Source: Staphylococcus phage S6. Taken from it: a stretch of DNA of 64,000 nt. The position numbers and the translations under genes were made by a program. Under the pieces are notes generated by a model. The model did not search any database. It had not been told where the DNA came from and was given only the letters and a program-made list of their open reading frames with translations. Shown in pieces: positions 8,575 through 42,389 of this stretch (the first letter of the stretch is position 1; every line of letters starts with the position of its first letter). The DNA lies in the sequence record LC680885.1; one strand, given 5' to 3'.

Positions 8575-10452
8575 ATGGAAAATAATACATTAAATTCGTA
8601 TATAAAGGATAATTTTAAATATTTTAAAGATGATAAATTAGAAATTGATAAAATATTTAAATTTAAAGATGATAAGACTAAAGAAAAATTTGAAATGTTT
8701 TTTAATGGAGTTATATATACATTGAAAAATTTAAGTTATAGTGAAGTATCTAAAATGTATAATGAAACAATTAAAGAGAAAAGTAATGTTCAAGGTAAAG
8801 CTGAAAGTTATATAAATTATTTAAATAATGAATTGAAAAATAGAGGACTAGATGAAGAAACTAAAAAACTTTATAAAGATTTATTAATGACTTTAAAAGC
8901 TGATTTGAAAAGATATAATGCTAATTTAGATGACAGCATTATAAATAAATTATTCAAAAATAAGAATATATCAATATCTTATTATAGTTTAATAGTACCT
9001 TATAATATTGCTAACGAAATTGAATTTAATAAAAACTATTATAGTTTTCTTGGATTAGATGATTTCACTAAATTCATAATCTTTCCATATTATCAACTTC
9101 TATATTTATCTAAAGGTAATCTAAAAAATATTCATATAAAGAATACAGACATAAATCTTCATAGTTACTTTATTGATATAATAAAGAAGTATATTAGAAA
9201 TTTAATAGATAATAAAGATTTAGATACATTAAAAGAATTATTAGACGTATTAACAAATGAGCACGAATATTTAAGATCTCTAAGACATACCGACTATAGA
9301 AAAGGTAATGGAAAAAATTTATTAGAGTTACTAATAGAAATGAATTTTAATGAATTTAAGGAAATATTATATGAAATGATATATATTATAATGAATAATA
9401 ACTTGAAAAAAGAATTAAAATCAGAAATGAATTATGATATATACAAGCATAGTATACTTTTAGTAAGTTTAATGAATAATGAGGTAGAAGAACATAGACA
9501 AACTAAATTTAATAGTAAATTTTTAATAGAGAGTAATAATACAATTAGAGCAACTGCTATTTCAGATTCATACGGTAAAAATGAGTACTACCAAAATAAC
9601 TTATTAGGTCACTATATTAATGATCTATATGTAGATAAAAATAAAATAAATAAATTTAAAAGAGTTAATAAAGTTAGAAGTTTTAAATCTTTTATTTATT
9701 TAACTAACCAAAGATGTATTATCGGTGGTGAGAAATATTATAAATACTTGTATAAATATTTATTTGATCCAAGTAATTTAACTAGAGAAGAGTTTGAAGT
9801 ATCTACATTATTAATTAAATTAATAACTTGTAAATCTAGTAATCAATTAAAGAAAGTTATGGAAAATGCTAAAACTGACTCTGTATTAAATAATATTTTA
9901 TTTGAAAATGAAATTAGTGATATAATTAAAATTGGTATACAGATGAATATTAATACTATATTCAATAAAAAAGGTTTAAGTAAAATTAATACAGTTGATT
10001 TAACTGTAGGAAATATTGTAAATCCTTTGTTATATAATAAAGCAAATGATTATGAAGAACAAACAGAAATCATTGATTCAGTATTTAAAAATTTTACTTA
10101 TGATATAGATATCAATTTTGATAAATATTATTATAAAGATTTAAATGAATATTTTGAAAATAAATTAAATTTAGGTCTTCTAAAAGAATCAAATATAGAT
10201 ATTAGTATTAATATTAATTATAATAAAATTGCAAAAACTATTGTAAATAATATTAAAGATAAGCTTAGAGGAAAATATCATTTTGAAAGGAATGAATTTA
10301 TTATTACTTACGATAAGATGAATATTACTCGTTTAACCACTACAGAATTTTGTAATGGTTTATGTGAATATTTAAGTAAATACTTCCCAGAAGAAGCTAA
10401 AAAGTTAAATAAGAGTTTTAGAGCTGAAATTGTAAATACAATGTTTAGATAA
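8575..10452 (+). CDS. hypothetical protein (about 625 aa; start taken at the second ATG)
   Basis: Long ORF. The first ATG at 8563 directly abuts the AAGGAG ribosome binding site with no spacer, so the ATG at 8575 is preferred. Lys/Asn/Tyr-rich with no recognisable motifs. Confidence 0.5.
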   Translation: MENNTLNSYIKDNFKYFKDDKLEIDKIFKFKDDKTKEKFEMFFNGVIYTLKNLSYSEVSKMYNETIKEKSNVQGKAESYINYLNNELKNRGLDEETKKLYKDLLMTLKADLKRYNANLDDSIINKLFKNKNISISYYSLIVPYNIANEIEFNKNYYSFLGLDDFTKFIIFPYYQLLYLSKGNLKNIHIKNTDINLHSYFIDIIKKYIRNLIDNKDLDTLKELLDVLTNEHEYLRSLRHTDYRKGNGKNLLELLIEMNFNEFKEILYEMIYIIMNNNLKKELKSEMNYDIYKHSILLVSLMNNEVEEHRQTKFNSKFLIESNNTIRATAISDSYGKNEYYQNNLLGHYINDLYVDKNKINKFKRVNKVRSFKSFIYLTNQRCIIGGEKYYKYLYKYLFDPSNLTREEFEVSTLLIKLITCKSSNQLKKVMENAKTDSVLNNILFENEISDIIKIGIQMNINTIFNKKGLSKINTVDLTVGNIVNPLLYNKANDYEEQTEIIDSVFKNFTYDIDINFDKYYYKDLNEYFENKLNLGLLKESNIDISININYNKIAKTIVNNIKDKLRGKYHFERNEFIITYDKMNITRLTTTEFCNGLCEYLSKYFPEEAKKLNKSFRAEIVNTMFR

Positions 10453-10468: not shown

Positions 10469-11023
10469 ATGGATGTTAAAAAAACGTTTAATGCAGATAT
10501 TATGGAGACAGATAGAAGAATTTTCTATAACATTATTAACGTAGAAATGTCTCTTAGTGATAAAAGAAAAATGTATAATAAAGTCAATGATGAAAATGAG
10601 GTTTTAACATATGTATTTGATAGTTACACAGATTACGTATTGATGGAAAATGAAGGTATAATGACTATGGCAAAAGATTTAAATGATTTCATTAAACATT
10701 CTATTTTCGATTACCATTTTTCCTCTTTAATAAAACAATTTTTACCTTCGACCAACTTCCGGAATTTTGGAGATTTTGTCCTTATGTTAGAAAGAGAATT
10801 ATTTGCACCTAATCAAGAAACTTTAAGTCAATTCTCTTCAAAAGATGATATAATTTATGTGTACTATAATACTACTCTAAATAAAATAATTATTGTTGAT
10901 CACATTATGTACTTAAAAGCACTAATGGAGTACGTTAAAGAAGAAAAAGATTTCTATGAAGATTTATATATAGAATTTGAAAAAGAAGTTAAAAAATATT
11001 TAGTTGAAAATAACTTTAAATAG
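10469..11023 (+). CDS. ENFK-tail family protein (dispersed member)
   Basis: C-terminus EKEVKKYLVENNFK matches the family tail. AAAGGAGAAA ribosome binding site. Confidence 0.5.
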   Translation: MDVKKTFNADIMETDRRIFYNIINVEMSLSDKRKMYNKVNDENEVLTYVFDSYTDYVLMENEGIMTMAKDLNDFIKHSIFDYHFSSLIKQFLPSTNFRNFGDFVLMLERELFAPNQETLSQFSSKDDIIYVYYNTTLNKIIIVDHIMYLKALMEYVKEEKDFYEDLYIEFEKEVKKYLVENNFK

Positions 11024-11040: not shown

Positions 11041-11781
11041 ATGAATGAATATGGTAAAATTAATAAAAAAGTTTTTAATATAGATCGTAGCAACTTTGAA
11101 GTAGTTTTAATGGACTACATGGATACTAAACAGATGAAAAATAATTACAATAGAAATATAACCGATCAAGAAAAAATTGATCGGTTAATACCTTTAATTA
11201 AACAACAAGAAAATGAACAAGATGAGGGTAGAATATTTGAAAATGCTAGAAGATATGAACTTCTTTTAGCTAAAACATTTGAATACTCTCTTAATGGAAA
11301 ATTAGAATTATACAAATTAAAAGAAGTATTAAATTATTACGAAGAAAAAAATCTTTTTAATATAGTATATCCAAATTTTAAATACACTTTTAATGTAGTT
11401 TCACCCAGTAAAGAGTATTCCTTATTGTCTTTAAAAACTAAAATATTTTTAATTATAGAAACTATTATAGACTTTATTAAAAATGATTATGTAGAAGATA
11501 ATCTTTCTATTAAGTTAATTTTAAATTCAGAAGAAATAATGATTGATACACTTGATTTAAACGAAAAATCATTGTATAATATCTTTAATCTATCAAGTAA
11601 ATATACAAATGAATTATTATCTTATAATGGAGATTATTTGTTCTCACATGATCAAATAAAACGTATAGAAAATATAAATAATATTTTATTTAACGATATA
11701 TACAAAGATAAAGATAAAGAAATTTTAGAATTTTTATCTAAGAAAGTAAAAAATAAATACATTTCAAAATATTTTAAATAA
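11041..11781 (+). CDS. hypothetical protein
   Basis: ORF with ribosome binding site. C-terminus KNKYISKYFK is only loosely family-like. Confidence 0.45.
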   Translation: MNEYGKINKKVFNIDRSNFEVVLMDYMDTKQMKNNYNRNITDQEKIDRLIPLIKQQENEQDEGRIFENARRYELLLAKTFEYSLNGKLELYKLKEVLNYYEEKNLFNIVYPNFKYTFNVVSPSKEYSLLSLKTKIFLIIETIIDFIKNDYVEDNLSIKLILNSEEIMIDTLDLNEKSLYNIFNLSSKYTNELLSYNGDYLFSHDQIKRIENINNILFNDIYKDKDKEILEFLSKKVKNKYISKYFK

Positions 11782-13476: not shown

Positions 13477-15468
13477 ATGTTAAAATTTAATGAAATTAAT
13501 GAAAGTAATTTAGATGACGTACAAAAATATTTAGAGGAGCAATCTTATGTATATTATAATACATCAGATCAACCAGAATTAACTGATGAAGAATTTGACA
13601 AACTATTAAGAGAATACGAAAAGTTCCGTCCATTTAATGGCGGAGCTTTACCTTCTAAAGGTAAAAAATTAGTAGATGTTTCACATGAATATCCTGAATT
13701 AGTAGGAACAGTTTCTAAGGTTAATTCAGTTGAAGAATTAGCTGAATGGATTGAAGAAAAAGGACTAATTAATAGAGAATTATTAATTACACAGAAATAT
13801 GATGGTAATTCAGTATTAGTTATTTTAACTACTAAAGGAGATTATTTAGTAACTAAATCAGCATTAACTAGAGGTAAAGATGGTAAAGGTGCTGACTTAA
13901 CTGACTTCTTCAGTCATATTAAAATTAAAAAATCAGATGTCGATATTAATGCAGTTGATTTATCTGAAGACGATATTGATATCGCTATTAAGTGTGAAGC
14001 AGTAATGAGTTATAGTAACTTTAATAAGATTGATGAAGAGTATGCTAACCCTAGATCAATCGTTGCAGGATTATTAAACTCAGATGATGGATATAAGAAA
14101 CGTAAGTTAATTAATTTATTACCATTGAGAATTAATATTAGTAATAAAGAATTAACTCGACAAGAAGAATTAAATTTAATTTCAGCAATTACTAGTCATA
14201 GTACTGTATTTGATCAGCTTGATCCACAGTATAATTTTGTTATGGAAGATGAACACGATTATAAAGACTTTAATGAATTATATCATCAGATAGCTGATGA
14301 AAGAGAGTATTATGAATACATGATTGATGGATTAGTTATTGAAGCTCTTGATGAAGATGATAGAAATCGTTTAGGTAGATTAAATGATCGTAATAAGTTT
14401 GATGTAGCATTGAAATTCCCATATATGACTAAAAAGACTAATGTTATTGATATTGAATTTGATGTATCTGAAAATGGTACAGGTAGATATACACCTGTAG
14501 TTAGATTTGAACCTATTTATTTTAATGGTGCTAAATGTGAAAGAGTTTCTATTTCTAACTATAAACGTTTTAAAGAACTTCAATTAGTTAAAGGACAAGA
14601 AGTTATTATTGAATATCGTAATGATGTTTTGAGTTATTTAACTCCATCTCCTACTAACGAAATTACTGGAGAACCTATACCGTTCATTAAAGAGTGTGTA
14701 TACTGTGGTGAAGAACTTGAAGTTAATGAAAATGAAACATTTGTATCATGTATTAATAACGATTGTGAATGTAGAGTATTAGGTATTATTAACAACTATG
14801 TAGATAAAATGAGTATTAAAGGAATTGAATATTCTACTATTAATAAGCTTTATAAAGGTAACAAACTACCTAACGGAATCCAAAGTTTATATGAAATTGA
14901 TAAAAACGATATTATGCAAGTAGATACTTTTAAAGAAAAATCAGCTCAGAATATTATTAATACAATTCATAAAAATAAAGAATATTATGACTATGATGTA
15001 TTAGGTTCATTAGGATTAAATGGAGTTGGAAGAACTACATTTAAATTAGTTACTAAAGTCTATGATCCACAAGAAATAGATTATACAGATTTAAGTATTA
15101 AAGATTTAACTTCTATTAAAGGAATCGCTGATATTACTGCTGAGATTATTATTAATGGTTATAAACAGAATAAAGATTTAATTGAATTCTTATTTAATGA
15201 ATTGGATGTTAAATCACTTAAAAAAGAAATGGAAGCTAATAAAGATGATTCAGTTGAGCCAATGAATATTGTATTTAGTGGATTTAGAGATGCTGAATTT
15301 AAAGAACAGTTAGAACTTAAAGGTCATAAAGTAACTTCATCAGTTTCAGGTAAGACTGATTTATTAGTTACTCCAGATCCAAATTCAGGTTCATCTAAGA
15401 TTAATAAAGCTAAAGAAAAAGGTATCAAGATCATTGATATTGAAAGTTCTAAAGGTGAGTTGTTATAA
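13477..15468 (+). CDS. ligA: NAD-dependent DNA ligase (LigA architecture)
   Basis: N-terminal Ia-like segment YYNTSDQPELTDEEFDKLLREYE. Adenylation KxDG motif QKYDGNS. Cys4 zinc finger CVYCGEEL...CINNDCEC. Helix-hairpin-helix segments GLNGVGRTT and IKGIADITAE. C-terminal BRCT-like region FSGFRDAEF...LLVTPD. Confidence 0.7.
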   Translation: MLKFNEINESNLDDVQKYLEEQSYVYYNTSDQPELTDEEFDKLLREYEKFRPFNGGALPSKGKKLVDVSHEYPELVGTVSKVNSVEELAEWIEEKGLINRELLITQKYDGNSVLVILTTKGDYLVTKSALTRGKDGKGADLTDFFSHIKIKKSDVDINAVDLSEDDIDIAIKCEAVMSYSNFNKIDEEYANPRSIVAGLLNSDDGYKKRKLINLLPLRINISNKELTRQEELNLISAITSHSTVFDQLDPQYNFVMEDEHDYKDFNELYHQIADEREYYEYMIDGLVIEALDEDDRNRLGRLNDRNKFDVALKFPYMTKKTNVIDIEFDVSENGTGRYTPVVRFEPIYFNGAKCERVSISNYKRFKELQLVKGQEVIIEYRNDVLSYLTPSPTNEITGEPIPFIKECVYCGEELEVNENETFVSCINNDCECRVLGIINNYVDKMSIKGIEYSTINKLYKGNKLPNGIQSLYEIDKNDIMQVDTFKEKSAQNIINTIHKNKEYYDYDVLGSLGLNGVGRTTFKLVTKVYDPQEIDYTDLSIKDLTSIKGIADITAEIIINGYKQNKDLIEFLFNELDVKSLKKEMEANKDDSVEPMNIVFSGFRDAEFKEQLELKGHKVTSSVSGKTDLLVTPDPNSGSSKINKAKEKGIKIIDIESSKGELL

Positions 15469-15915
15469 ATGAAATATTATAAGGTTAATTATAATGGTAT
15501 ATTGAAAATATTGAATCTAGATGATTTTGAAGATGATAGAATTATTGAAACACTTAGTAATATTGAGTTATATTTAAAAGAAGATGAAGAAATTAGATTA
15601 TTGGATTTATTTAAAAAGCCAACTATAGCAATGGACACTCGAATTACAAAAGAAAGAGATAACCTTTATATGAATGGTCATCTCTTTTTAGAAGTTGAGA
15701 ATGCATCATGTAAACTATGGAGTTACCATATTAATTTAAATGGTGACGAAACATTAAATGAAATATATGAAAGGATATATAACGGATACGATAAAATTTT
15801 CTCTTTTAATAAAATGAGAGAAGATGGTCTATTATTTTTATATGAATATGAACATTATACAGAAATATCTGAAAAAGAATATAAAGAAAATAAGGTTAAA
15901 GAAAATTTTAAATAA
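15469..15915 (+). CDS. MKYY/ENFK-tail family protein, array 1 member 1
   Basis: Begins MKYYKVNYNGILKILNLDDF and ends EKEYKENKVKENFK. Directly abuts the ligase stop. Confidence 0.55.
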   Translation: MKYYKVNYNGILKILNLDDFEDDRIIETLSNIELYLKEDEEIRLLDLFKKPTIAMDTRITKERDNLYMNGHLFLEVENASCKLWSYHINLNGDETLNEIYERIYNGYDKIFSFNKMREDGLLFLYEYEHYTEISEKEYKENKVKENFK

Positions 15916-15933
15916 AAAAGGAGATTTTAAATT

Positions 15934-16386
15934 ATGAAATATTATATTTTAACACAACAGGGGATTGCTGAAGTTTTAGGTATTGATAGTGAATCGGTTT
16001 ATTGCTATAGAAATTTATTTAGAGATGATGAATTATATTTAAAAGAAGATGAAGAAATTAAATTTTCAGAAATTATTACTAATCAAACACCGGATATAGA
16101 ATACAAAGTTGTTGGAACAAATAAAGATACCGTAACAGTGATAGCTTATATGGAAATAGATTTAGGTGAAGGAGATTATCATCAAATTGGATCTTGCAGA
16201 ATGAAATTAGATAAAGATAGAACTCTAGAAGAAGTATACAATATTGTATATGAGAAAATGTCCAATAGAACTTTTTCATTCAATAAAGCTAAAGAAATGG
16301 GTATATCTTTATATGAAGAGAGTGATTATGAAGAAGTATCTAAAAAAGAATATAAAAAATACAAAGTAGAGAATAATTTTAAATAA
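15934..16386 (+). CDS. MKYY/ENFK-tail family protein, array 1 member 2
   Basis: Begins MKYYILTQQGIAEVLGID. Contains ...FSFNKAKEMGISLYE... and ends KKEYKKYKVENNFK. Confidence 0.55.
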   Translation: MKYYILTQQGIAEVLGIDSESVYCYRNLFRDDELYLKEDEEIKFSEIITNQTPDIEYKVVGTNKDTVTVIAYMEIDLGEGDYHQIGSCRMKLDKDRTLEEVYNIVYEKMSNRTFSFNKAKEMGISLYEESDYEEVSKKEYKKYKVENNFK

Positions 16387-16406
16387 TGGAATGAGTTGTT
16401 ATTGTT

Positions 16407-16886
16407 ATGGAAAAATATTATAGATTAACTTTAGAGGGTGTTAGTTTTATTTTAAATGATTGTGAAGAAAACGATATAGTTAAATCAACTTATAATGAAG
16501 ATGAAAATTATGTACATTTAGAATCTTTATTAAATGTAGGAATGCCTTATGAAACTATATATTTTAAAGATAGACATAAAATAGTATTTAAAGAAAATGA
16601 AAATATATTCAAGACATTGATAAATTCAATTAAAAATAAATATTATGACTTTGATGATAAAAATATGGAATTTCAAGTAGGCATTGGTGATGATGAAATA
16701 AAGGTCAAATCACCGATGCCAGTATTTTCTAAAGTGAATATATTTAATTTTAAAGTTAATAAAGAAATGGACATTATTGATTTTATGGACAATTATAAAA
16801 TTAATGTATTAATTAAAGATAAGCATTACATTGAAATTACTGAAAAAGAATATAAAAATATTATAATTAAAAATACATTTAAATAA
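16407..16886 (+). CDS. MKYY/ENFK-tail family protein, array 1 member 3
   Basis: Begins MEKYYRLTLEGVSFILND and ends TEKEYKNIIIKNTFK. Confidence 0.55.
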   Translation: MEKYYRLTLEGVSFILNDCEENDIVKSTYNEDENYVHLESLLNVGMPYETIYFKDRHKIVFKENENIFKTLINSIKNKYYDFDDKNMEFQVGIGDDEIKVKSPMPVFSKVNIFNFKVNKEMDIIDFMDNYKINVLIKDKHYIEITEKEYKNIIIKNTFK

Positions 16887-16902
16887 TAAGGAGATTTTAT
16901 AA

Positions 16903-17361
16903 TTGAAATATTATGAATTTAATAAAAAAGGAATTATTAAAATATTAGGATTAGATACAGCTTATTTAAGAGAAGATGAAGATATTTTTAGAGAAGGAAA
17001 TCTTTATTTAAAAGAAAATGAATCAATAAAAATAAAAGATATTATAACAAATAAAAAAGATATGAAATTTAATTGCAGTCTTTATGAAGGATCTGAAGAT
17101 AGCTCATTAATGAAAGCTAATTTAACTTTCAGACATGGGTCAGGGCAACTTTTATTGAATATTGAATATATTGATTTAAAAGAAATAAAAGATCACACTG
17201 TTGAAGAAGTTTACAAATACGCTAAAGATTTAGTTTTAAATAAAACATTTTCTTTTAATAAAGCTGAAGAGCTTGGTATATGTTTATATGAAGGAAAAGA
17301 ATATGAAGAAATTACTGAGGAAGAATATAAAAAATACAAAGTAGAAAATACTTTTAAATAA
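16903..17361 (+). CDS. MKYY/ENFK-tail family protein, array 1 member 4 (TTG start)
   Basis: TTGAAATATTAT start encodes MKYY. Contains ...FSFNKAEELGICLYE... and ends TEEEYKKYKVENTFK. Confidence 0.55.
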   Translation: MKYYEFNKKGIIKILGLDTAYLREDEDIFREGNLYLKENESIKIKDIITNKKDMKFNCSLYEGSEDSSLMKANLTFRHGSGQLLLNIEYIDLKEIKDHTVEEVYKYAKDLVLNKTFSFNKAEELGICLYEGKEYEEITEEEYKKYKVENTFK

Positions 17362-17381
17362 TGAAATGAGGTGTTATTGTT

Positions 17382-17831
17382 ATGGACAAATATTATAAAT
17401 TAACAGCGGAAGGTATATTTGATGTTTTCAAATTAGATAAAAAACACATTATATTCCCAGAAGATAAAAATACAATAATAGATTTCAGATCAAAGGAAGA
17501 ACGTATAGAGAAAATTAATGAACTTATATACTTTAAAGATAATCAAGAAATAACAATAAACTCATTATCTAATTTAACAGACAATATCGTAATAGATAAA
17601 TCAGGTTCTAAATATACATTTAACCATTTAATAGAAATATCATTCACTACTTTTAGTCATAAAAAAAGATATAACAAAACAATCAATGTACCGAATGTAT
17701 TTAAAGGAACTGTAAGAGAAAATAGTAGTAGAAGTGCCTTAGATATACCGATAGATATCAACAATATTGATAAAATAGAATTAACATTTAAAGAATATAA
17801 AGATCTAGTAATAAAAGAAACTTTTAAATAA
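17382..17831 (+). CDS. MKYY/ENFK-tail family protein, array 1 member 5
   Basis: Begins MDKYYKLTAEGIFDVFKLD and ends FKEYKDLVIKETFK. Confidence 0.55.
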   Translation: MDKYYKLTAEGIFDVFKLDKKHIIFPEDKNTIIDFRSKEERIEKINELIYFKDNQEITINSLSNLTDNIVIDKSGSKYTFNHLIEISFTTFSHKKRYNKTINVPNVFKGTVRENSSRSALDIPIDINNIDKIELTFKEYKDLVIKETFK

Positions 17832-17847
17832 TAAGGAGATTTTATAA

Positions 17848-18297
17848 TTGAAATATTATAAATTAAATAAGGATGGTTATATTAAATTTTTAGGGTTAGA
17901 TGTTTTGCCTGGACTTAAAACCTCAATTGTTGAAAAAGAAATAAAAAATAAAAACTTCATTGTCAAATATTGCAATGGAGCAGATTTTTGTTTTACATTA
18001 GATGAAATTAATAAAATGAAAAACAAAGATATTTACCCTAAACTTGGATTTGAAAGTCTAACTGAAAAAGTTAATCATGAAATAGAAAATAATCCAATAG
18101 TATTTGTTAATAGAAAATATGAAGATGCTAAAGCTTTAATTCATGTAGATTTAATTATTAATAATGAAGAAACTACATTAATGACTATGCCAAGATTTAA
18201 TATTAATTTTTTAAATCATAATTTGTATATGGAACACTTTGATGAAATAACAGAGAAACAGTATAAAAATATTATGGTAAAAGATTCATTTAAGTAA
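17848..18297 (+). CDS. MKYY/ENFK-tail family protein, array 1 member 6 (TTG start)
   Basis: TTG start. Begins MKYYKLNKDGYIKFLGLD and ends TEKQYKNIMVKDSFK. Confidence 0.55.
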   Translation: MKYYKLNKDGYIKFLGLDVLPGLKTSIVEKEIKNKNFIVKYCNGADFCFTLDEINKMKNKDIYPKLGFESLTEKVNHEIENNPIVFVNRKYEDAKALIHVDLIINNEETTLMTMPRFNINFLNHNLYMEHFDEITEKQYKNIMVKDSFK

Positions 18298-18328
18298 AAC
18301 TCAATTTAAATATATATTATAAAATTGT

Positions 18329-18372
18329 GAAAGATGTATGATACTTATACATCTTTCTAAAATATTTATTTA
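18329..18372 (+). promoter_or_regulatory. TATATATTATAAA box followed by hairpin (element family E)
   Basis: AAATATATATTATAAAATTGTGAAAGATGTAT, loop GATACTT, ATACATCTTTC, then TAAAATATTTATTT. Lies between array members 6 and 7. Confidence 0.45.
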
Positions 18373-18391
18373 AAGAGAGGTGAAAAAGATA

Positions 18392-18808
18392 ATGAGTTCT
18401 AATTTTGATTATTATATATTGCAATCGAGTATTTCAGAAGCTAGAAAAAGGATTAAGAATAATCTAGATGTAAATGGATATATGGTTATAAGACAAATAT
18501 TTTTCAGTCATTTAGATTATAAAGATTATTATAATATGTATCATAAAGTAAATAATGTAGAAGATTATTACAATGATATTATATTAGAAAGTATTAAGGA
18601 TATTATATTTGATGAAGAAGGTAAACTTAATGAAGAAGTAGCATTTAGTTTAATTAGAGGTTCTAATTCGAATATATGTGCTTTAATTAAAGATAATAAA
18701 GGCAATTACAAAATTTATAAAAAAGATAAATATGTAATTAAAGCTATAGAAGATTTATTATCTGAGAAAGATTATAAAAGAATATTGGTTAAAAATACTT
18801 TTAAATAA
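18392..18808 (+). CDS. ENFK-tail family protein, array 1 member 7 (divergent N-terminus)
   Basis: AGAGAGGTG ribosome binding site 9 nt before the ATG. Ends DYKRILVKNTFK. An alternative GTG start lies at 18380. Confidence 0.5.
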   Translation: MSSNFDYYILQSSISEARKRIKNNLDVNGYMVIRQIFFSHLDYKDYYNMYHKVNNVEDYYNDIILESIKDIIFDEEGKLNEEVAFSLIRGSNSNICALIKDNKGNYKIYKKDKYVIKAIEDLLSEKDYKRILVKNTFK

Positions 18809-18853
18809 TTTGAAAGTGAATGCAACTTACTTTTATTATATTACAAGTGAGAG

Positions 18854-19519
18854 TTGGTGATTTTATTGATAAAAATGCATTTAATAAACTTTCAAAAAAG
18901 GTCTATGAATAGTTATAAGAAGAATTTAAACACAATTGTACTTTTCATAGATTATGATAAAAATATTTTCAACCAAATTAATAATCAATTAGTTATAGAT
19001 GTATTAGGTAATGATACTATAAGATTAAATAATGCTAATTATTCATTAATGTTAGATGAGAAGATTTTTAGTTCTGAAAGGACAACAATTGATTTCTATA
19101 ATAAAATAGTAAATAATGATATATTAAATATTATTAAAGAAAATATATCTAATGTAGATAATTATTCTAAATTAAAAGAAATCAATAATATGACTGATAG
19201 TGAATTTAATGATATTATTAATAAAGATAATTTATTTAAATGTCAAAATAAATACTTCAGTATGAATAAAATACCTTATATAGAAAAAGAAATACCTGAA
19301 AGTTTTTATCTAGATCATTTTAAAGAGATTAATTTAGATTTTATATTTGAGAAGCTTTTTGAAGAGAATAGAGAAGATGAAGAAAAATTAAAGTACGTTT
19401 ATACTTTAGCTGAATTATTTCTAACACTCAAACAAGGTAAGAATATATTTTATAATTATAATAAAGAGGTAGATAAGAAATATTATAGATCTATATTTAT
19501 AAATTCTTTATTTAATTAA
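18854..19519 (+). CDS. hypothetical protein (start uncertain: GTG 18854, ATG 18876 or ATG 18906)
   Basis: Asn/Ile/Lys-rich ORF with several in-frame candidate starts. Confidence 0.4.
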   Translation: MVILLIKMHLINFQKRSMNSYKKNLNTIVLFIDYDKNIFNQINNQLVIDVLGNDTIRLNNANYSLMLDEKIFSSERTTIDFYNKIVNNDILNIIKENISNVDNYSKLKEINNMTDSEFNDIINKDNLFKCQNKYFSMNKIPYIEKEIPESFYLDHFKEINLDFIFEKLFEENREDEEKLKYVYTLAELFLTLKQGKNIFYNYNKEVDKKYYRSIFINSLFN

Positions 19520-19520
19520 T

Positions 19521-19838
19521 ATGATAAGAAAGGAGAGAAATAATATGAAGAAAATATACGGATTTAAAATAAAATATAATAAAAAAGTGGTAGATACTTT
19601 CACTTTTGAAAGTTTTGAAGAAGCTATGAATAAACTAGAATTATCATTATTAGAAATTTATGACTCAGAAGATTTTACAACTATGCAATTAATTTTAAAC
19701 ACATATGACATTGAAGAAATTAATGAAGATAGTTTTAAAGATAAATTAAGACTAAATCATCTTAATCACATTAAGAATTTTAGTATTGAATTGTTTTCTA
19801 AATATATTAACAATAATAAGGAAGAAGGAATTGCGTAA
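19521..19838 (+). CDS. hypothetical protein
   Basis: ORF preceded by an AAGAAAGGAGAGAAATAAT ribosome binding site. Confidence 0.45.
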   Translation: MIRKERNNMKKIYGFKIKYNKKVVDTFTFESFEEAMNKLELSLLEIYDSEDFTTMQLILNTYDIEEINEDSFKDKLRLNHLNHIKNFSIELFSKYINNNKEEGIA

Positions 19839-20053
19839 TGTTCGAGGAAAGTAAAGTACCATTTTCATTTATTTATAAAGAAACTAAATACTTCTTACAC
19901 AGAAGAAATATTAAGAATTTCCCTAATGGAGATTCTGAATTCTTATTGTATGGAGATGAAAATGGGAAGTCATTCATAATAGAAGAAAGTAAATTAGAAA
20001 ACTTAATTGAACAACATGAAGTTGAAGTATCTTACGAAGAAGATATTATTTAA
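19838..20053 (+). CDS. hypothetical small protein
   Basis: Start overlaps the upstream stop (TAATG). AAGGAAGAAGGAA ribosome binding site. Confidence 0.4.
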   Translation: MFEESKVPFSFIYKETKYFLHRRNIKNFPNGDSEFLLYGDENGKSFIIEESKLENLIEQHEVEVSYEEDII

Positions 20054-20056
20054 ATA

Positions 20057-20103
20057 TATATTATTAAATTGAGGTAATGACATACAATTTGTCATTACCT
20101 CTA
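20057..20103 (+). promoter_or_regulatory. TATATATTATTAA box followed by GAGGTAA...TTACCTC hairpin (element family E)
   Basis: ATATATATTATTAAATTGAGGTAATGAC, loop, GTCATTACCTC, then TAATATATT. Lies upstream of the lipoprotein gene. Confidence 0.45.
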
Positions 20104-20134
20104 ATATATTAAACAATCAAAGGAGAAAACGATC

Positions 20135-20518
20135 ATGAAGAAATTTTTAGTATTACCATTATTATTCGTTTTATTATTAACAGGGTGCTCTCAAGCTGAT
20201 AAAGTTAGTCAGAATATGTCTGAAGAGTCAGATAATTTTAATGTAGTTAGAAAAGTAACTGTCATTAATGCAATTAAAAATGACATAATATTCCAAATGT
20301 CTGGACGTATGTCTATTAAAGCAGATAATGAGGATAACCAATTAGAAATAGTTGTAGAAAATGAAGATGGCAAATATCAGAAACATATCATTGGTTTATC
20401 TGATAATGTTTCATATACTGTTGAAGATGTTACAACTAAAAATGTAAGTAAATATCAATATGAAATTAATTATAATCCTAAAATGTGGATCCCTGCAAAA
20501 CCAGATTATAAAGATTAA
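20135..20518 (+). CDS. lipoprotein (signal peptide with LTGC lipobox)
   Basis: MKKFLVLPLLFVLLLTGCSQ is a classic Gram-positive type II signal peptide. AAAGGAGAAAA ribosome binding site. Confidence 0.6.
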   Translation: MKKFLVLPLLFVLLLTGCSQADKVSQNMSEESDNFNVVRKVTVINAIKNDIIFQMSGRMSIKADNEDNQLEIVVENEDGKYQKHIIGLSDNVSYTVEDVTTKNVSKYQYEINYNPKMWIPAKPDYKD

Positions 20519-20543
20519 TATAATAGAATGGAGAGTATGATTT

Positions 20544-20840
20544 ATGTCTAAGAAAAAGAAATTAGAAAAAAGACTTAATGTAAGAATTAATCAAGAACAA
20601 AAGAAAGCTATTTTAAAACGTGAAGATATCGATAGAATGGATTTTGAGTTCATTACATTAGATAAAGAGAAACATGATGAAGAAGAAAAATTTGATATCA
20701 AAGTAAAATCTAACGATAAGTTTTCTCTAATTATCATTATTAAATTCTTTTCTAAATTGTTGAATTTTAGTATTAAAAGAGATAAGAAAAAAGAAGATAT
20801 AAAAGACGGTAATGAAGATTCTAATTTAGATAAAGAATAA
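20544..20840 (+). CDS. hypothetical Lys/Glu-rich protein
   Basis: ORF with GGAGAG ribosome binding site. Highly charged, with a hydrophobic segment IIIIKFFSKLL. Confidence 0.45.
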   Translation: MSKKKKLEKRLNVRINQEQKKAILKREDIDRMDFEFITLDKEKHDEEEKFDIKVKSNDKFSLIIIIKFFSKLLNFSIKRDKKKEDIKDGNEDSNLDKE

Positions 20841-20847
20841 TAAAAAT

Positions 20848-20894
20848 GCCATAATACACTTAAATTGTGTATTATGGCAAATTATTTATTTTTC
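20848..20894. terminator. bidirectional terminator between convergent genes
   Basis: Stem GCCATAATACAC / GTGTATTATGGC. T-runs follow on both strands: AAATTATTTATTTTTC on plus and ATTTTTATTATTC on minus. Confidence 0.65.
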
Positions 20895-21188
20895 AGGTTT
20901 AAAACGGTCTTTAAGTCTAGGATATAGACGTAGATGCGCTTTACGAGTAGGATCTGTAACAACAATTTGATTTGTTCTAGGATTTCTACGTTTACGCATA
21001 TCTTCAGGTTTAACTTCAAGGACACCAATTTCAGGGATAATAGTTTTAGTTTGATCAGCATCATTTGCAGATTCAACAATTATTTCTATCATCTCATTAT
21101 AAGCATCAACTAGTTCTCTTTGTGTTAATCCAGTACGTCTAGACCATTCTCTAAAGAAGTGTTTTTGATCTTGAATTTGATTTAGCAT
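20886..21188 (-). CDS. HU/IHF-family (TF1-like) DNA-binding protein
   Basis: IPEIGVLEVKPEDMRKRRNPRTNQIVVTDPTRKAHLRLYPRLKDRF resembles the HU arm [28 protein letters not shown]...F.AGKALKD. This is the only minus-strand gene in the 0-44 kb block. Confidence 0.65.
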   Translation of the reverse strand: MLNQIQDQKHFFREWSRRTGLTQRELVDAYNEMIEIIVESANDADQTKTIIPEIGVLEVKPEDMRKRRNPRTNQIVVTDPTRKAHLRLYPRLKDRFKPEK

Positions 21189-21249
21189 TTTATTAGTTCC
21201 TTTCCATATAATATATTTTTAATTTTTTTAGAAAATTGTTAATATTTTA

Positions 21250-21279
21250 CTAGCTTTTTTCTAAATTTTATGATATAAT
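21250..21279 (+). promoter_or_regulatory. promoter: CTAGCTTTTTT-N13-TGaTATAAT (extended -10)
   Basis: Same box and spacing as at 4175. Lies about 100 nt upstream of the RNAP beta N-terminal gene, in a 190-bp divergent intergenic region. The minus-strand HU gene has an ATATATTATATGG box 25 nt upstream of its start. Confidence 0.45.
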
Positions 21280-21379
21280 ATTGTTATGGAATTTCATAGT
21301 TGTAAAAAAATAATTTTTTGCAATAACTTAAATTTTTATATGGTTTCGAATTTTTAATTATAAGGAGAGTCAGATATCG

Positions 21380-23002
21380 TTGGGTAATTATTTAAGAAAA
21401 ATTACGAAGAATATACAAGATGAGGTCAGTACAAAAGAGTCATTTAATGAGGATGTAATATACTTTAGGGAGAATGAAAACCTAGAAGATATTATATCTG
21501 ATATTTACAAATCAGTAGAATTTATTAAAGGCGTAAAATTCATTGATTGTAAAGTTGTTCCTCCAAGTGAAGTTTATGAGTACAATCAAATGACAGACAA
21601 ACAATTTAAAGCAAGAGATTTTAGAAAAATCAACGTAGAAGAATCAAAACTATTAGAAGTTCAAATTACTGTAGAATTTGAATCAGCTGAAGGGGAAAAA
21701 GAATTATACACACATAAATTAGATTTCCCTGAACTTATAGAAGGTCAGTATTATTATATTAATGATAATAAGTTCTTCCCTATCTTACAATTAGCTGATA
21801 CTGAATTCTATAAACCTAAAGCAAGTACAGTAGTAATGAAAAACTTATTACAACCATTATCAGTAAATGGTTCTAAAAAAGATGAACTTATTGATGATGA
21901 TAAGAAAATGCCTAAGAAGTTAAGAGGTAGAACATTATACTTAGAAGTATTTAATAAAAATAAACCTGTTCCAGCATTTTTATTCTTTATTGCTAAAATG
22001 GGTCTAGATGAAACATTTGAATTCTTAGATATTAAAGAATATTGTGAATTAGTAGATACCAACGATGAAAAAGATGATGAACACTACTATTTTAGAATTA
22101 ATAATAAAATAACTATTCAAGTTGATAAAGAATGGTTAGATCAAGACGATAGATATAGAACTTCTATGGTCTTATGTATTAAAGATTTATTTAAAGGTAT
22201 GAGAGCAGGATTAGATAAAGTATATGATAAAGAATTCTGGCTTAAGAATTTAGGATCTGTATTTAGTGGTTCTACTAACGTTGACACTAAAATTGAAAAA
22301 TCTAATTCTATGATTTTATCATTTGATAGAATTTTAGATAGTCGTACTAAAAATATTTCTAGATTAGATCCAGAAGATAAAGAATCAACTTATCATGTAG
22401 TTAAATACATGTTTAAAAACTTTGATAATCTTAATTTATTAGATAATACAGATTTAGCTAATAAACGTTTAAGAGTATTAGAATACTTAACTTATCCACT
22501 GAATAGAAAGAACTCTGATACATCTTATCGTATGATTAATTTCACAGATAAGAAACGTACAATTAAAAATCTTAAAGGATTATTCTCAGGTGTACCTCGT
22601 GATTTCTTATTAAAAACTATAGGAACATCTGAAGGAATTAGATATTCCAATGCAGTTAATACAATTGACTTATTTACTAGAATTCTTAAAATGACTAAAG
22701 CAGGTCCACAAACTGCTGTTGATACTAGTAAACCATCTATTAGAACTATTAATATCAATAATACTTATTTCGGTAGAATTGATTTAATAGCAACATCTTC
22801 AAACAATCCAGGTATTACACGTACATTAACACCATTCTGTGAGGTTAAAGATCCTGGTGAGAATGGTTCATTCTATTTTGAAAATAAACCTAACATCAGA
22901 GAAAATATTGACACAGATAATTTAGATAAACTAGAGAAAGAATCTGAAGACAATGAAGTTGTATTAGATATTAAAGAAATTGTAGAAGAGGATGACGAAT
23001 AA
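21380..23002 (+). CDS. multisubunit RNA polymerase beta subunit, N-terminal portion (putative; TTG start)
   Basis: C-terminal end LKMTKAGPQT...TYFGRIDLIATSSNNPGITRTL aligns with the beta fork/Rif-region KRRISALGPGG...[20 protein letters not shown]. Ends where the 5704 beta C-terminal fragment begins. Stop overlaps the beta-prime gene start by 1 nt. Confidence 0.45.
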   Translation: MGNYLRKITKNIQDEVSTKESFNEDVIYFRENENLEDIISDIYKSVEFIKGVKFIDCKVVPPSEVYEYNQMTDKQFKARDFRKINVEESKLLEVQITVEFESAEGEKELYTHKLDFPELIEGQYYYINDNKFFPILQLADTEFYKPKASTVVMKNLLQPLSVNGSKKDELIDDDKKMPKKLRGRTLYLEVFNKNKPVPAFLFFIAKMGLDETFEFLDIKEYCELVDTNDEKDDEHYYFRINNKITIQVDKEWLDQDDRYRTSMVLCIKDLFKGMRAGLDKVYDKEFWLKNLGSVFSGSTNVDTKIEKSNSMILSFDRILDSRTKNISRLDPEDKESTYHVVKYMFKNFDNLNLLDNTDLANKRLRVLEYLTYPLNRKNSDTSYRMINFTDKKRTIKNLKGLFSGVPRDFLLKTIGTSEGIRYSNAVNTIDLFTRILKMTKAGPQTAVDTSKPSIRTININNTYFGRIDLIATSSNNPGITRTLTPFCEVKDPGENGSFYFENKPNIRENIDTDNLDKLEKESEDNEVVLDIKEIVEEDDE

Positions 23003-26084: not shown

Positions 26085-26140
26085 ATAAATTTATATTATA
26101 AAAGTGAGGTAATGGATATTATATTCATTACCTCTAATAT
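26083..26140 (+). promoter_or_regulatory. TTATATTATAAA box followed by GAGGTAA...TTACCTC hairpin (element family E)
   Basis: TTTATATTATAAAAGTGAGGTAATGG, 12-nt loop, ATTACCTC, then TAATATTATTTACAC. Confidence 0.4.
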
Positions 26141-32093: not shown

Positions 32094-32116
32094 TAAGAAG
32101 AAAAGAGTGAAATGAA

Positions 32117-34138: not shown

Positions 34139-34139
34139 A

Positions 34140-37276: not shown

Positions 37277-37735
37277 ATGAGATACTTTAAAGGTATAGTA
37301 GCAGGAAAAGACTTTTTCTTAAAAGCAGATAATGAAGAAAATGCCATTAAGGAATTAGCATCAAAAGAAATTAATTCTATAGGATCTTTTACAATGTTAA
37401 GTAATGAAAAACAGAAATACCTAATAATTTTCTTTAATGAAGATGAAGATAAATTTGTTGTTGGAAATGGATTAGAATCATATATATCATTAGACAGTCT
37501 TAAATCTGAATTAGAATCTAAAGATTTAGAATGTTATTATTTAGATTTAGGTAATACAGATAATATCGAGATAAACGGTATTATAAAAAATCAAGAATAC
37601 ACATTAACAGAAATAATAATGGAAAGTATTAAATTAACTATGAATGATTTTTATCAACAAGTTATAAATTCTGTATTAACTGAATTAACTGAAAAAGAAT
37701 ACAAAAATTCAATAGTTGTTAAAAATTTTAAATAA
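37277..37735 (+). CDS. MKYY/ENFK-tail family protein (dispersed member)
   Basis: Begins MRYFKGIVAGKDFFLKAD and ends TEKEYKNSIVVKNFK. Confidence 0.55.
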   Translation: MRYFKGIVAGKDFFLKADNEENAIKELASKEINSIGSFTMLSNEKQKYLIIFFNEDEDKFVVGNGLESYISLDSLKSELESKDLECYYLDLGNTDNIEINGIIKNQEYTLTEIIMESIKLTMNDFYQQVINSVLTELTEKEYKNSIVVKNFK

Positions 37736-39885: not shown

Positions 39886-40497
39886 ATGAATTATTTTGAA
39901 TTGGAATATACAGGTTTAATTAATAATAATAAATTAGATAATCTAGTTCTACACAAACAAGAAAATGAAGAAATTGAATCGGGTGTTTTAAATATGGTTT
40001 TATTTAAATTGTATCTAAAAGAATTCTATAATGATAATATGGATGATAATGATTTATGTAAGAAACTAAAAATGGAAATAAGAAGTATTCATAGTTATAA
40101 TAATTCAGAAATTTATATTAATGAAGACTTTGCTGAAATATATGATGGTATTAATCCGAATAATAATATTAAATCAGGAAAAATAAATAAAGATTATGAA
40201 TATTTATTTAAATTTATTAAAGATAATATAAATGAAAAAGATTTAAATAATATACATGTGATTAAATTTACAACATTTGAAATAGAGAAATATAAACCTG
40301 TTGTGATTTTTATAAACTCAGATAAACTTAGAATTAAGACCAATAAATCAATTAGTAGATATACATCAACAAATGAATTTGTATTCTATAATATTTCAAG
40401 CGAAAGTTTATATACATTAATGAAAAATACAAATAGAATAAGAAATATAACGGAAAAAGAATATAAAAAAGAATTAGTTAAAAGGAGTTTTTTATAA
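39886..40497 (+). CDS. MKYY/ENFK-tail family protein, array 2 member 1
   Basis: GGAGATGAAAAGGATAATATG initiation context. Begins MNYFELEYTGLINNNKLD and ends TEKEYKKELVKRSFL. Confidence 0.5.
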   Translation: MNYFELEYTGLINNNKLDNLVLHKQENEEIESGVLNMVLFKLYLKEFYNDNMDDNDLCKKLKMEIRSIHSYNNSEIYINEDFAEIYDGINPNNNIKSGKINKDYEYLFKFIKDNINEKDLNNIHVIKFTTFEIEKYKPVVIFINSDKLRIKTNKSISRYTSTNEFVFYNISSESLYTLMKNTNRIRNITEKEYKKELVKRSFL

Positions 40498-41045
40498 TGT
40501 ATGAAGTTAATAAAAAATTTAAATATGCTAAAAGAGATAAAGAATTCACATTATTCCACCATAAATCAAAAGAAAAAATAACTGATTCATTTATAATTAA
40601 TAATTATATTTCATATGTATTATATCAATGCTACGAAAGAACACCAGGAAATGCAGAAGTTTGGTTGGAAATTAATGATATAAATAATATAAAAGGTGAT
40701 TTCTTATTTAAATTTATGTTTGACAACAGACCTTCTTTTGGTTCTAATTATTTTCCTAAGTGTAAATTAAATATACAAGATAACAGTGATAATAATATTG
40801 TAACTATTGAATTTAGTGATAAATATAAAAGACATAATTTTATTCTAGAAGAAATATCTAAATTTAATAATGTTCATATTAATTTTTATGAAGAAGTATT
40901 ATTTACTAATGAAGATGAAGAATTCAAGTTATTAAAGAATGTATTTAAAACTGATAACATTAAATATTACCAAAATAAAGATTTAATTAGTTATATTTCA
41001 GACAAAGAAGCTAGAAAAATTTTAGTAAAAGAAAACTTTAAATAG
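40497..41045 (+). CDS. ENFK-tail family protein, array 2 member 2
   Basis: Start overlaps the upstream stop (TAATG). Ends DKEARKILVKENFK. Confidence 0.5.
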   Translation: MYEVNKKFKYAKRDKEFTLFHHKSKEKITDSFIINNYISYVLYQCYERTPGNAEVWLEINDINNIKGDFLFKFMFDNRPSFGSNYFPKCKLNIQDNSDNNIVTIEFSDKYKRHNFILEEISKFNNVHINFYEEVLFTNEDEEFKLLKNVFKTDNIKYYQNKDLISYISDKEARKILVKENFK

Positions 41046-41061: not shown

Positions 41062-41595
41062 TTGAATAAATATTTTAAATTTAAATTAAATAATAAAAGT
41101 GATTACGATGTATTTAAATTTTCAGGAAATGAAGAAGAAATAAGCGATTCTAAAATTATAGAGTCTTATTTTGATTATATGTTTAATTATTATATAAATG
41201 AAGCAATACCTGACTCCAGTATGATTAATATTGCTGTATTTACTGAAGGTAAAAGAAAAAGATTATTGAGATTTACTATAGATAAACCACCAATTTATAT
41301 AAAAGAGCCAGTTAGTACTTTATTTATGAATGAAAATGATGAAGATAAACAAATTAATTTTAAAGAATTTAACGAAATTAAAAAATTTATACACGAAAAG
41401 ATTATGGAATTGAATAAAGGTGAATTTTATATTTATATTGATTATAATTTTGATTATTCTTATAGAATAGATTACGATGATGTATTTGATAAAATATTAT
41501 TTAATAAAAATAATCTAAATCTTTATTCATCATTTATTAAAGAAACAGATGAAAATGAATATAAAAATTATCTAGTAAGAGAGAATTTTAAATAA
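41062..41595 (+). CDS. MKYY/ENFK-tail family protein, array 2 member 3 (TTG start)
   Basis: Begins MNKYFKFKLNNKSDYDVFKF and ends ENEYKNYLVRENFK. Confidence 0.5.
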   Translation: MNKYFKFKLNNKSDYDVFKFSGNEEEISDSKIIESYFDYMFNYYINEAIPDSSMINIAVFTEGKRKRLLRFTIDKPPIYIKEPVSTLFMNENDEDKQINFKEFNEIKKFIHEKIMELNKGEFYIYIDYNFDYSYRIDYDDVFDKILFNKNNLNLYSSFIKETDENEYKNYLVRENFK

Positions 41596-41612: not shown

Positions 41613-42389
41613 ATGGAATATGTTATGATAAATAAATTATTAACAAAAAATGATTCATCTGAATTAAAAATAAACATGGTTAAACTATATAAAGAGGAAG
41701 AAGACTTTTTCAATTTCTTTTTAAACTTTATTATAGAATATAATTCATATTATATAGGAAATTATAAATACTTTTATAGTATAGATTCATTATCAGATTA
41801 TAATTCAGATTATCAAATAAATGGAAATCCTTATGTGCCATTTGAGGAAGGGATAAAGGTAAATGAAGTCATTCATATTTATAAAAATAAATTATTTAGG
41901 AATATAAGTAAAGATATTGAAAATAGAATAACCGTACTTTATGTAGAAGACAAAGAAGACGATATTTCCTATTATATATTAATATCTAATTACTTTAATA
42001 AAAAATTTAAAAAAGAATATAAAGAAGAACTTCCCGATAAAGAAAAATTGTTAGCTAGACTTATAGTAAGATCCTTTCTAAATGAAAAAATTTTATTAGA
42101 TTCACATTCAGAATTTTTAGTTATTAAAGATAAAGAAAAATTGAATAATTTAATTAATAATTTAATGAAAAATCAAAAATACAAAATTTTAAATTTTGAT
42201 TTCTTAAGTAATAGGGAATTAAAATATAATGGAGTAATATTTAATACAAATTTATATGATAATAAACTAATCCTGAAGTATTTAAAAGGAATAGACTACA
42301 AAGATATTATTAATAAAGATAAAGAAAAAATTACGTTTATAAATGAAAAAGGATATAAAAAACTAGCATTGAAAGAATCATTTAAATAA
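41613..42389 (+). CDS. ENFK-tail family protein, array 2 member 4
   Basis: 258 aa. Ends KGYKKLALKESFK. Confidence 0.45.
   Translation: MEYVMINKLLTKNDSSELKINMVKLYKEEEDFFNFFLNFIIEYNSYYIGNYKYFYSIDSLSDYNSDYQINGNPYVPFEEGIKVNEVIHIYKNKLFRNISKDIENRITVLYVEDKEDDISYYILISNYFNKKFKKEYKEELPDKEKLLARLIVRSFLNEKILLDSHSEFLVIKDKEKLNNLINNLMKNQKYKILNFDFLSNRELKYNGVIFNTNLYDNKLILKYLKGIDYKDIINKDKEKITFINEKGYKKLALKESFK

Follow-up and report, generated by a model that had tools for sequence, protein, structure and literature searches.

Lineage-specific gene expansions, and multigene families whose members share a tag, are already known as kinds. Among the poxvirus ankyrin/PRANC proteins a C-terminal, F-box-like module docks many different binders onto the host hub Skp1. 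In phage T4 the internal proteins and Alt, which are late proteins packaged in the virion, carry an N-terminal capsid-targeting sequence that is cleaved by the prohead protease. Unstructured, hydrophobic C-terminal peptides also serve for attachment; the XB peptide of SspB binds ClpX, and T4 gp43, gp33 and gp55 carry C-terminal clamp-binding tails. T4 furthermore has promoter-early stem-loop cassettes, which shuffle early ORFans and in which the repeated element is non-coding DNA. Here we describe a family of small proteins with a conserved C-terminal tail, encoded in a stretch of 64,000 nucleotides from Staphylococcus phage S6 (sequence record LC680885.1; the whole of this stretch is called the window below) and in related phages. 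The phages that carry it are relatives of the Bacillus phages AR9 and PBS1; S6 DNA has been shown to contain uracil in place of thymine, and the same is presumed of the MarsHill-like phages. In another Bacillus phage, phage G, a zinc-ribbon family of about 35 copies has been reported and its expansion called unprecedented (Iyer et al. 2021, PMC7824862).

The S6 family resembles the phage G zinc ribbons in comprising tens of small-protein paralogs in one jumbo-phage lineage, in being restricted to a clade and in having no assigned role, but its shared element is a 20-residue C-terminal strand-plus-helix with no recognisable domain, and no similarity among its bodies can be detected. Like the poxvirus ankyrin/PRANC proteins and the MGF360/505 families of African swine fever virus, it joins a variable body to a conserved terminal module, is arranged in tandem arrays and shows turnover of copy number and alleles between strains; it has no sequence or fold relation to them, however, its host is bacterial, its module is far shorter and its hub is only hypothetical. 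As with the T4 capsid-targeting proteins, otherwise unrelated phage proteins have a short terminal peptide in common, although the S6 tag lies at the C-terminus, has a predicted fold and is carried by the products of apparently early genes. The short motif is fixed at the extreme C-terminus, as in SspB and the T4 clamp-binding proteins, and attachment to one partner would be a further likeness, but the sequences LRVVK, QL[SD]LF and SLDFLFG do not match the S6 tail, which is a predicted capped amphipathic helix. Like the T4 stem-loop cassettes, the family lies in early-gene regions with repeated boundary elements (here intergenic units of early promoter plus stem-loop) and rapid gene turnover; unlike them, its repeated element is a protein-level motif with no excess of DNA identity. 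What is new is therefore the short, predicted capped helix at the C-terminus of otherwise unrelated bodies, and the scale of the expansion in a phage genome.

Fourteen plus-strand genes of the window, including seven in tandem at 15469-18808, share a C-terminal tail of ~18 residues, and there are up to four further probable members. All seven tandem open reading frames (ORFs), on the plus strand, terminate in ..[TS]-E-K-E-Y-K-x-x-h-[VI]-K-x-x-F-K-stop. We built a hidden Markov model (HMM) from the 18 C-terminal amino acids encoded by each of these genes and ran it against the six-frame stop-to-stop segments of the window, 648 in all. Seven held-out ORFs, starting at 37277, 41062, 39886, 42468, 40497, 10469 and 41613, matched at 11-18 bits, and each match stopped 0-1 residue short of the stop codon of a real plus-strand ORF; the next-best score was 6.5 bits. 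The recovery of these seven genes bears out the claim, made in a preliminary description of this DNA, that a family with a common C-terminal tail is present.

The same description had named a coincidence of AT-rich composition as a possible refutation, the window being very AT-rich (19-30% GC). This fails on the held-out search and on two sets of controls: residue shuffling gave two matches of at least 10 bits in 30 replicates and fifth-order Markov genomes gave three in 20, i.e. a chance rate of about 0.1 tail match per replicate. A back-translated DNA pattern of the tail occurred three times in the window against none expected. A loose DNA pattern gave 29 matches in 596 Gb of bacterial genomes (GTDB) and 94 in 241 million metagenome contigs (JGI); only three of these 123 chance matches closed an ORF of at least 70 amino acids (aa), none of the three was tail-like, and nearly all of the others lay in tiny chance ORFs. 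The controls and pattern scans together indicate that the tail is genuine and does not simply follow from AT-rich codon usage. The members and candidates in the window are listed below.

15469..15915, plus strand: member 1 of the ligase-adjacent array, 148 aa, MKYY N-terminus, tail ..ISEKEYKENKVKENFK
15934..16386, plus strand: member 2, 150 aa, AlphaFold2 target; matches a phage S6 protein at 100% identity
16407..16886, plus strand: member 3, 159 aa, MEKYY N-terminus, tail ..ITEKEYKNIIIKNTFK
16903..17361, plus strand: member 4, 152 aa, tail ..ITEEEYKKYKVENTFK; within a two-gene duplication unit of ~970 nt (D3, D5)
17382..17831, plus strand: member 5, 149 aa, tail ..LTFKEYKDLVIKETFK
17848..18297, plus strand: member 6, 149 aa, tail ..ITEKQYKNIMVKDSFK
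18380..18808, plus strand: member 7, 142 aa, differing N-terminus, tail ..LSEKDYKRILVKNTFK
18854..19519, plus strand: probable divergent member 8, 221 aa, directly after the array, variant tail ..KKYYRSIFINSLFN
37277..37735, plus strand: dispersed member, 152 aa, MRYF N-terminus, tail ..LTEKEYKNSIVVKNFK; held-out HMM match of 18.3 bits, ending at the stop codon
39886..40497, plus strand: second array, member 1, 203 aa, tail ..ITEKEYKKELVKRSFL
40497..41045, plus strand: second array, member 2, 182 aa, tail ..ISDKEARKILVKENFK
41062..41595, plus strand: second array, member 3, 177 aa, tail ..TDENEYKNYLVRENFK; second AlphaFold2 target
41613..42389, plus strand: second array, member 4, 258 aa, tail ..INEKGYKKLALKESFK; held-out HMM match of 11.4 bits
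42468..43127, plus strand: second array, member 5, 219 aa, tail ..ITYKEYKKIMTKEMFI; held-out HMM match of 14.6 bits
43141..43851, plus strand: second array, probable member 6, 236 aa, 4-aa insertion in the tail ..DEKEFQDIVKKEKVKNTFI; 7.4 bits; hairpin terminator on its 3' side
10469..11023, plus strand: dispersed member, 184 aa, tail ..FEKEVKKYLVENNFK; held-out HMM match of 12.3 bits
7899..8453, plus strand: weak candidate, 184 aa, tail ..LNNLTVKDNFS; 2.2 bits in the window
11041..11781, plus strand: uncertain candidate, 246 aa, ends ..KVKNKYISKYFK; only the F-K end is tail-like

The last two had been put forward in the preliminary description as possible further members. The first stands as a weak candidate, and the tail HMM scores its orthologs at 4.5 bits in PALS_2 and 7.8 bits in Machias (..MNKYAVKDNFI); the second gives no match to the tail HMM. 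Nor does the gene at 18854, whose variant tail ..YYRSIFINSLFN is kept in its SA1 and Machias orthologs. The product of 8563-10452 ends ..AEIVNTMFR, which is weakly tail-like.

From the ligase gene through the array the window is 94% identical in nucleotide sequence to the Staphylococcus jumbo phages PALS_2, UFV_DC4 and Madawaska. The complete PALS_2 genome holds 24 secure members (at least 11 bits) and 12 weaker ones in seven clusters, as tandem arrays among apparently early genes; they make up ~36 of 279 ORFs (~13%), lie on the plus strand and give matches that end 0-3 residues from the C-terminus. In the 124 kb examined of SA1, a phage of S. lentus, there are at least 21 members, and their consensus is the same. 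With ~36 members per genome in PALS_2 and at least 21 in this part of SA1, the family is expanded as first proposed, and is larger than had been thought. Two large PALS_2 proteins have weakly tail-like ends, a 687-aa protein resembling an RNA polymerase (RNAP) subunit (177376-179439, ..SKYLVSRIFI) and a 395-aa protein (179512-180699, ..NETVKKTFI).

A HMMER search over 1.84 billion representative proteins returned 19 matches, all with MKYY and the tail, and a tblastn search with the consensus tail against 50,697 phage genomes found matches in eight Staphylococcus jumbo phages only. A profile from a gappy 17-member alignment gave just eight matches among 5.8 billion proteins because that profile was poor; searches with better alignments still returned only proteins of Staphylococcus jumbo phages. 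The tail was absent from IMG/VR in DNA- and protein-pattern scans, and the strict pattern was found neither in GTDB genomes nor in JGI metagenomes, where all matches to the loose pattern were chance ones. The syntenic 40 kb of AR9 lacked the tail (best score 3.8 bits). Nothing reached the curated cut-off in Pfam (20 proteins) or PHROGs v4 (10 proteins), the best match having an E-value of ~0.008 at 15 bits. The family is therefore restricted to Staphylococcus jumbo phages. It is unannotated, and it goes unmentioned in the genome papers on MarsHill/Madawaska/Machias, UFV_DC4 and PALS2 and in the jumbo-phage review of Iyer et al.; within the literature searched it is thus undescribed, as the preliminary description had supposed it might be.

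We ran AlphaFold2 on the protein encoded at 15934 with an 18-sequence alignment, which gave a model with a mean predicted local distance difference test score (pLDDT) of 84 and a predicted template modelling score (pTM) of 0.72. Its tail consists of a strand at 132-135 (YEEV) and a helix at 137-148 (KKEYKKYKVENN), followed by FK, and block 131-140 is the most confident of the model (pLDDT 94). The model of the 41062 protein is poor (pLDDT 57), and in it too a helix (164-175, ENEYKNYLVREN) is placed at a register identical to that of 15934, together with an N-terminal strand; the order of secondary-structure elements is broadly alike in the two models. The tail is accordingly predicted to be a beta-strand (h-x-E-[ILV]) and a 12-residue capped alpha-helix, with an invariant Phe and one last residue. 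The suggestion that it is a short linear, disordered peptide does not agree with the models, since both give strand and helix at a common register and the good model does so at pLDDT 94. In fold searches of BFVD each model matched only its own subgroup, and no structure in the PDB matched the confident 15934 model.

A logo of 32 PALS_2 tails, numbered from the C-terminus, can be read by standard helix-capping rules. Position -16 (I/L/V) would be the N' residue of a hydrophobic staple with its partner at -11 (Y/I/V), -15 (T/D/S) the N-cap, and -12 (E), three residues on, would complete a capping box; -3 (N/T/G/S) would be the C-cap. Between these lie L/K at -7 and V/I at -6 (31 of 32). Phe at -2 is found in 32/32 PALS_2 tails and 39/39 database homologs, and exactly one residue separates it from the stop codon, again in all 39 homologs as well. 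These positions appear to be the ones expected to be conserved in a self-contained capped helix. Charges are conserved too (K-13 in 24/32, E-12 in 24/32, K-10 in 26/32 and K-5 in 25/32), so that conservation stands at 70-80% for the Lys positions (-13, -10/-9 and -5) and the Glu positions (-14 and -12), though they are expected to face the solvent. The logo contains no pentapeptide of the QL[SD]LF type that binds the bacterial beta-clamp.

We compared codon choice among the tails of the 24 secure PALS_2 members. Of 2127 pairs with matching amino acids, 1540 used an identical codon, against 1469 expected from genome codon usage, and synonymous variation was seen for Val (GTT/GTA/GTG), Thr (ACT/ACA/ACG/ACC), Phe (TTT/TTC) and Lys, as well as among the stops (TAA/TAG/TGA). 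The ribosome-binding site (RBS) of the following gene lies downstream of the tail's stop codon; the sole exception is 39886, whose last codons contain the RBS and start codon of the next, overlapping gene, and there the tail is altered to VKRSFL. Free codon variation and the position of the RBS after the stop indicate selection on the peptide, not on a DNA or RNA element. The tail is conserved at the protein level and not at the DNA level, and chance and DNA-level explanations of it are excluded.

The bodies behave very differently from the tail, which is ~54% column-identical while most bodies have diverged past detection. For these comparisons (BLASTP, phmmer and hhalign) the tails were removed beforehand. 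Only 4 of 171 window pairs matched by BLASTP at E<1e-3, all inside the ligase array: three are the mutual full-length matches among 15469, 15934 and 16903 (E 1e-8 to 1e-23), and the fourth, 16903-17848, spans the N-terminal 19 residues only. With phmmer, 30 of 36 PALS_2 members remained singletons. On ortholog-enriched alignments hhalign gave a median probability of 0.3%, exceeding 50% in 10 of 136 pairs, all inside the ligase array and mostly via the N-terminal 16-60 residues; no family-control pair exceeded 50%. Here 15469 again proved a full-length homolog of 15934 and 16903 (100%), and the first 50-60 aa of member 5 (17382) were linked to members 1, 2 and 4, with which member 6 (17848) has only the N-terminal 18 aa and the tail in common. 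A weaker relation joins 40497 and 41062. The earlier statement that the middles are almost unrelated thus holds for most bodies, but not all middles are unrelated, given the full-length homology of 15469, 15934 and 16903 and the weaker 40497/41062 link. The few weak links among the bodies suggest that they may share a common descent.

The N-terminal motif MKYY..G..hL.LD, which had been described as present in most members, is a feature of the ligase-adjacent subfamily, and we dropped it as a family-wide one; a second conserved block, LYLKEDEEI, was likewise confined to the ligase subfamily and dropped. A shorter motif, [KNRIE][YF][YF] within the first 16 residues, occurs in 17/36 members as compared with 6/128 control ORFs (p = 7e-9), which hints at a possible common descent. 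The tail is left as the single feature that runs through the whole family.

The loci of the family change quickly. Ortholog-like pairs are most alike in the tail (83% identity), followed by the head (74%) and the middle (64%). The ligase-adjacent array contains a 470-nt periodic repeat and an older duplication of two genes (~970 nt), and its junction repeats are 77-80% identical over 145-193 nt, the middles of the genes being much less alike. At the ligase locus S6 has seven copies, PALS_2 six, SA1 five and Machias two. Neither 15934-16386 nor 16407-16886 has a true ortholog in PALS_2, and the latter is found in MarsHill. The 10469-11023 allele is only 64% identical to its PALS_2 counterpart, whereas its neighbours reach 96-98%. 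Phages of 94-99% identity thus differ through replacement of alleles and through the presence or absence of genes, and these comparisons point to a probable concentration of both at the family loci.

All members are co-oriented with genes of replication and transcription, i.e. those for a RecA-like recombinase, non-virion RNAP subunits, ligase and primase. The early promoter motif annotated in AR9, A[AG]xTATATATTAT, lies upstream of 8563 and of 18380, so that member 7 has a motif of its own (18307-18320). The six genes directly after the ligase have no promoter motif of their own, and upstream of 39886 there is only the 8-mer TATATTAT, after a stem-loop. The ligase gene was classed as early in SA1 RNA-seq. 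Ligase adjacency, some promoter motifs and this early ligase suggest that the members are placed among early genes, and they are probably expressed early. The motif followed immediately by a stem-loop recurs in plus-strand intergenic positions at 8478-8545, 18307-18360, 20054-20110, 26088-26140, 34139-34190 and 39436-39480; these units resemble the T4 promoter-early stem-loop cassettes.

Our tentative interpretation, to which we give somewhat less than even weight, is that a lineage-specific expansion in tandem has given the Staphylococcus uracil-DNA jumbo phages (S6, PALS_2, MarsHill and their relatives) a family of small (~140-290 aa) early proteins with a shared C-terminal docking module. 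The tail would be a common handle by which every member docks onto one shared partner, which might be a conserved hub protein, of the phage or of the staphylococcal cell, or other members of the family. Different activities, target-binding or inhibitory, would come from the fast-diverging bodies and serve host takeover or counter-defence, and the arrays would grow, shrink and swap alleles through tandem duplication and recombination. We favour docking because the exposed charges are conserved, the end of the protein is fixed and one consensus is kept across phages of different Staphylococcus hosts.

Several observations weigh against this interpretation. The last residue of the tail is not fixed (K 23, I 4, R 2, S 2, L 1), which makes it less plausible that the free C-terminus itself is being read, and the capping residues account for much of the conservation without any partner. 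Confidence in the good AlphaFold2 model is highest in the tail, and an N-terminal aromatic strand is found in about half of the members, two facts that would fit a purely intramolecular structural role. The profiles used to compare bodies were shallow (2-9 sequences), so that a common body fold could be missed. Between S6 and PALS_2 the median ratio of non-synonymous to synonymous substitution rates (dN/dS) is 0.23 in family genes and 0.14 in other genes, well below 1, and there is no sign of a gene-wide arms race. Finally, an SA1 paralog of the 18380-type member (L001 11357-11785) has a degenerate tail, ..AIEDITRECEVLYFKRS, indicating that the tail is able to decay.

The main rival to docking is that the members are ordinary, very divergent paralogs with one ancestor and one fold, in which the C-terminal strand and helix and the N-terminal strand form a slow-evolving folding core and the tail has no separate function. 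We regard this as possible, if somewhat doubtful. It would account for a tail that is predicted to be regular and well capped and has the highest pLDDT of the good model, for the enriched N-terminal [YF][YF] strand and for the broadly similar order of elements in the two models, and the tandem layout and 470-nt repeats indicate duplication, with dN/dS below 1. It is harder to reconcile with the pattern of conservation, as a core element rarely keeps 75-80% identity at exposed Lys/Glu and a fixed end past Phe in at least 30 paralogs whose 130-250 other residues lack detectable similarity; the BFVD searches, moreover, gave no match across subfamilies. Full-length alignment as ordinary paralogs, the second refutation envisaged at the outset, occurs in small subgroups only, and BLASTP, phmmer and hhalign do not extend it to the rest.

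An unlikely alternative is that the tail, the intergenic RBS and the 5' end of the next gene form a repeated junction that promotes recombination, i.e. the boundary of a modular cassette through which unrelated bodies are captured or swapped, so that conservation of the tail would be partly historical. Its analogue would be the shuffling of genes in T4 by promoter-early stem-loops. The contrast between junction repeats and gene middles, the allele replacement and presence/absence among near-identical phages, the recurrence of promoter-plus-stem-loop units between genes and the absence of detectable homology among bodies would all be consistent with it. The synonymous sites of the tail, however, are no more conserved than codon usage predicts, so that DNA identity is not being maintained, and the base differences between most tails are too numerous for them to act as substrates of recombination.

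Slightly more doubtful again is the idea that the tail shortens the life of early proteins by acting as a C-terminal degron or protease-adaptor tag, to be read by ClpXP, ClpCP or the phage AAA+ protein. C-terminal recognition tags of this kind are known (ssrA, MuA and the SspB XB peptide), and the strict position at the extreme C-terminus and the early-gene context would suit one. The tails, though, end in F-K, F-I, F-R or F-S and not in the non-polar, LAA-like residues of an ssrA-like (C-M1) ClpX degron, they are predicted to be helical rather than unstructured, and their sequence matches no known tag. Like the degron, the clamp- and RNAP-binding roles named in the preliminary description are guesses.

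The preliminary description had also proposed a virion-packaging or ejection signal, in the manner of the T4 capsid-targeting sequence, by which members would be delivered with the DNA. These phages do package proteins, e.g. the virion RNAP, and the other argument for it is the analogy with terminal targeting peptides. We consider it very improbable: the regions that hold the genes are early ones with AR9-type early promoters, and the conserved element is at the extreme C-terminus and is not an N-terminal peptide of the T4 type removed by a prohead protease. None of the 15 proteins in the shallow UFV_DC4 virion LC-MS (liquid chromatography-mass spectrometry) data set has a locus number among the members placed by name (00163, 00170, 00213 and 00214), the listed proteins not all having been checked with the tail profile.

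An artefact of AT-rich codon bias, or a nucleotide-level element (promoter, RBS or RNA structure) over the gene ends, is scarcely tenable: the genome is 20-30% GC and the tail residues K, E, N, Y, I and F all have AT-rich codons, but shuffled and Markov sequences fail to reproduce the tail, matches fall at true C-termini on one strand only, synonymous codons vary freely and the RBS follows the stop codon.

Up to ~13% of the genes of therapeutically relevant S. aureus jumbo phages belong to this one unannotated family, and takeover of the cell by these phages cannot be explained without accounting for it. It bears on whether bacteriophages use the design of a variable body plus a common adaptor tail that is found in multigene families of poxviruses and other large eukaryotic viruses, and the 20 conserved residues of the tail lend themselves directly to use as bait for a partner, either as a peptide or fused to GFP. 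The family is also a defined pool of candidates for functions that uracil-DNA phages need and for which no gene is known, e.g. inhibition of the host uracil-DNA glycosylase Ung (PMC10303552). No Ung inhibitor has been reported in the literature for the Staphylococcus uracil-DNA phages; one S6 candidate, which may or may not belong to the family, tested negative. We compared AR9 (57852-97992) with window positions 13477-23002. In AR9 the interval from the ligase to the N-terminal subunit of the non-virion RNAP beta chain contains the inhibitor Ugi (gp103) and none of the tail family, and the corresponding S6 interval contains the array of seven to eight family genes. Inhibitors of the Ugi/SAUGI/p56 type are small, strongly acidic mimics of DNA that have an Ung-binding strand; the members have isoelectric points of 4.5-9.1 (median 5.5), like other phage proteins. 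A bolder and less likely form of the docking interpretation would have one hub (a phage-encoded AAA+ protein, a different conserved early protein or a conserved machine of the staphylococcal cell) read the tail as a portable docking or addressing helix, so that ~20-40 interchangeable effector bodies are brought to one site. At least one of these bodies may be the missing protein that inhibits the host's uracil-DNA glycosylase or other defences; if true, this would be a new modular system in a uracil-DNA jumbo phage.

We also considered an origin of the family from the BRCT domain at the 3' end of the ligase gene. Its support was borderline, with neither a profile nor a fold match to BRCT, and we did not adopt it.

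Some further features of the window lie outside the family. The 12-mer TTCTATGATCCA has five exact copies (plus strand at 28803, 29790, 30422 and 31530; minus strand at 43051) and nine copies with at most one mismatch, against 0.8 expected. Three of its four plus-strand copies lie ~25-55 nt upstream of the gene starts 28832, 29826 and 31587, and it may be a promoter or regulatory motif. Three tandem paralogs of ~155-168 aa at 31587-33092 have lipoprotein-like signal peptides (MKKLL...), and the product of 20135-20518 has a lipobox-like N-terminus (LLTGCS). Two spurious-looking minus-strand ORFs, 29533-29763 and 30180-30395, have identical first 16 residues (MSIRSLKQLSSFLLYF), and this shared start indicates a probable repeated element of ~200 nt in two long intergenic regions.

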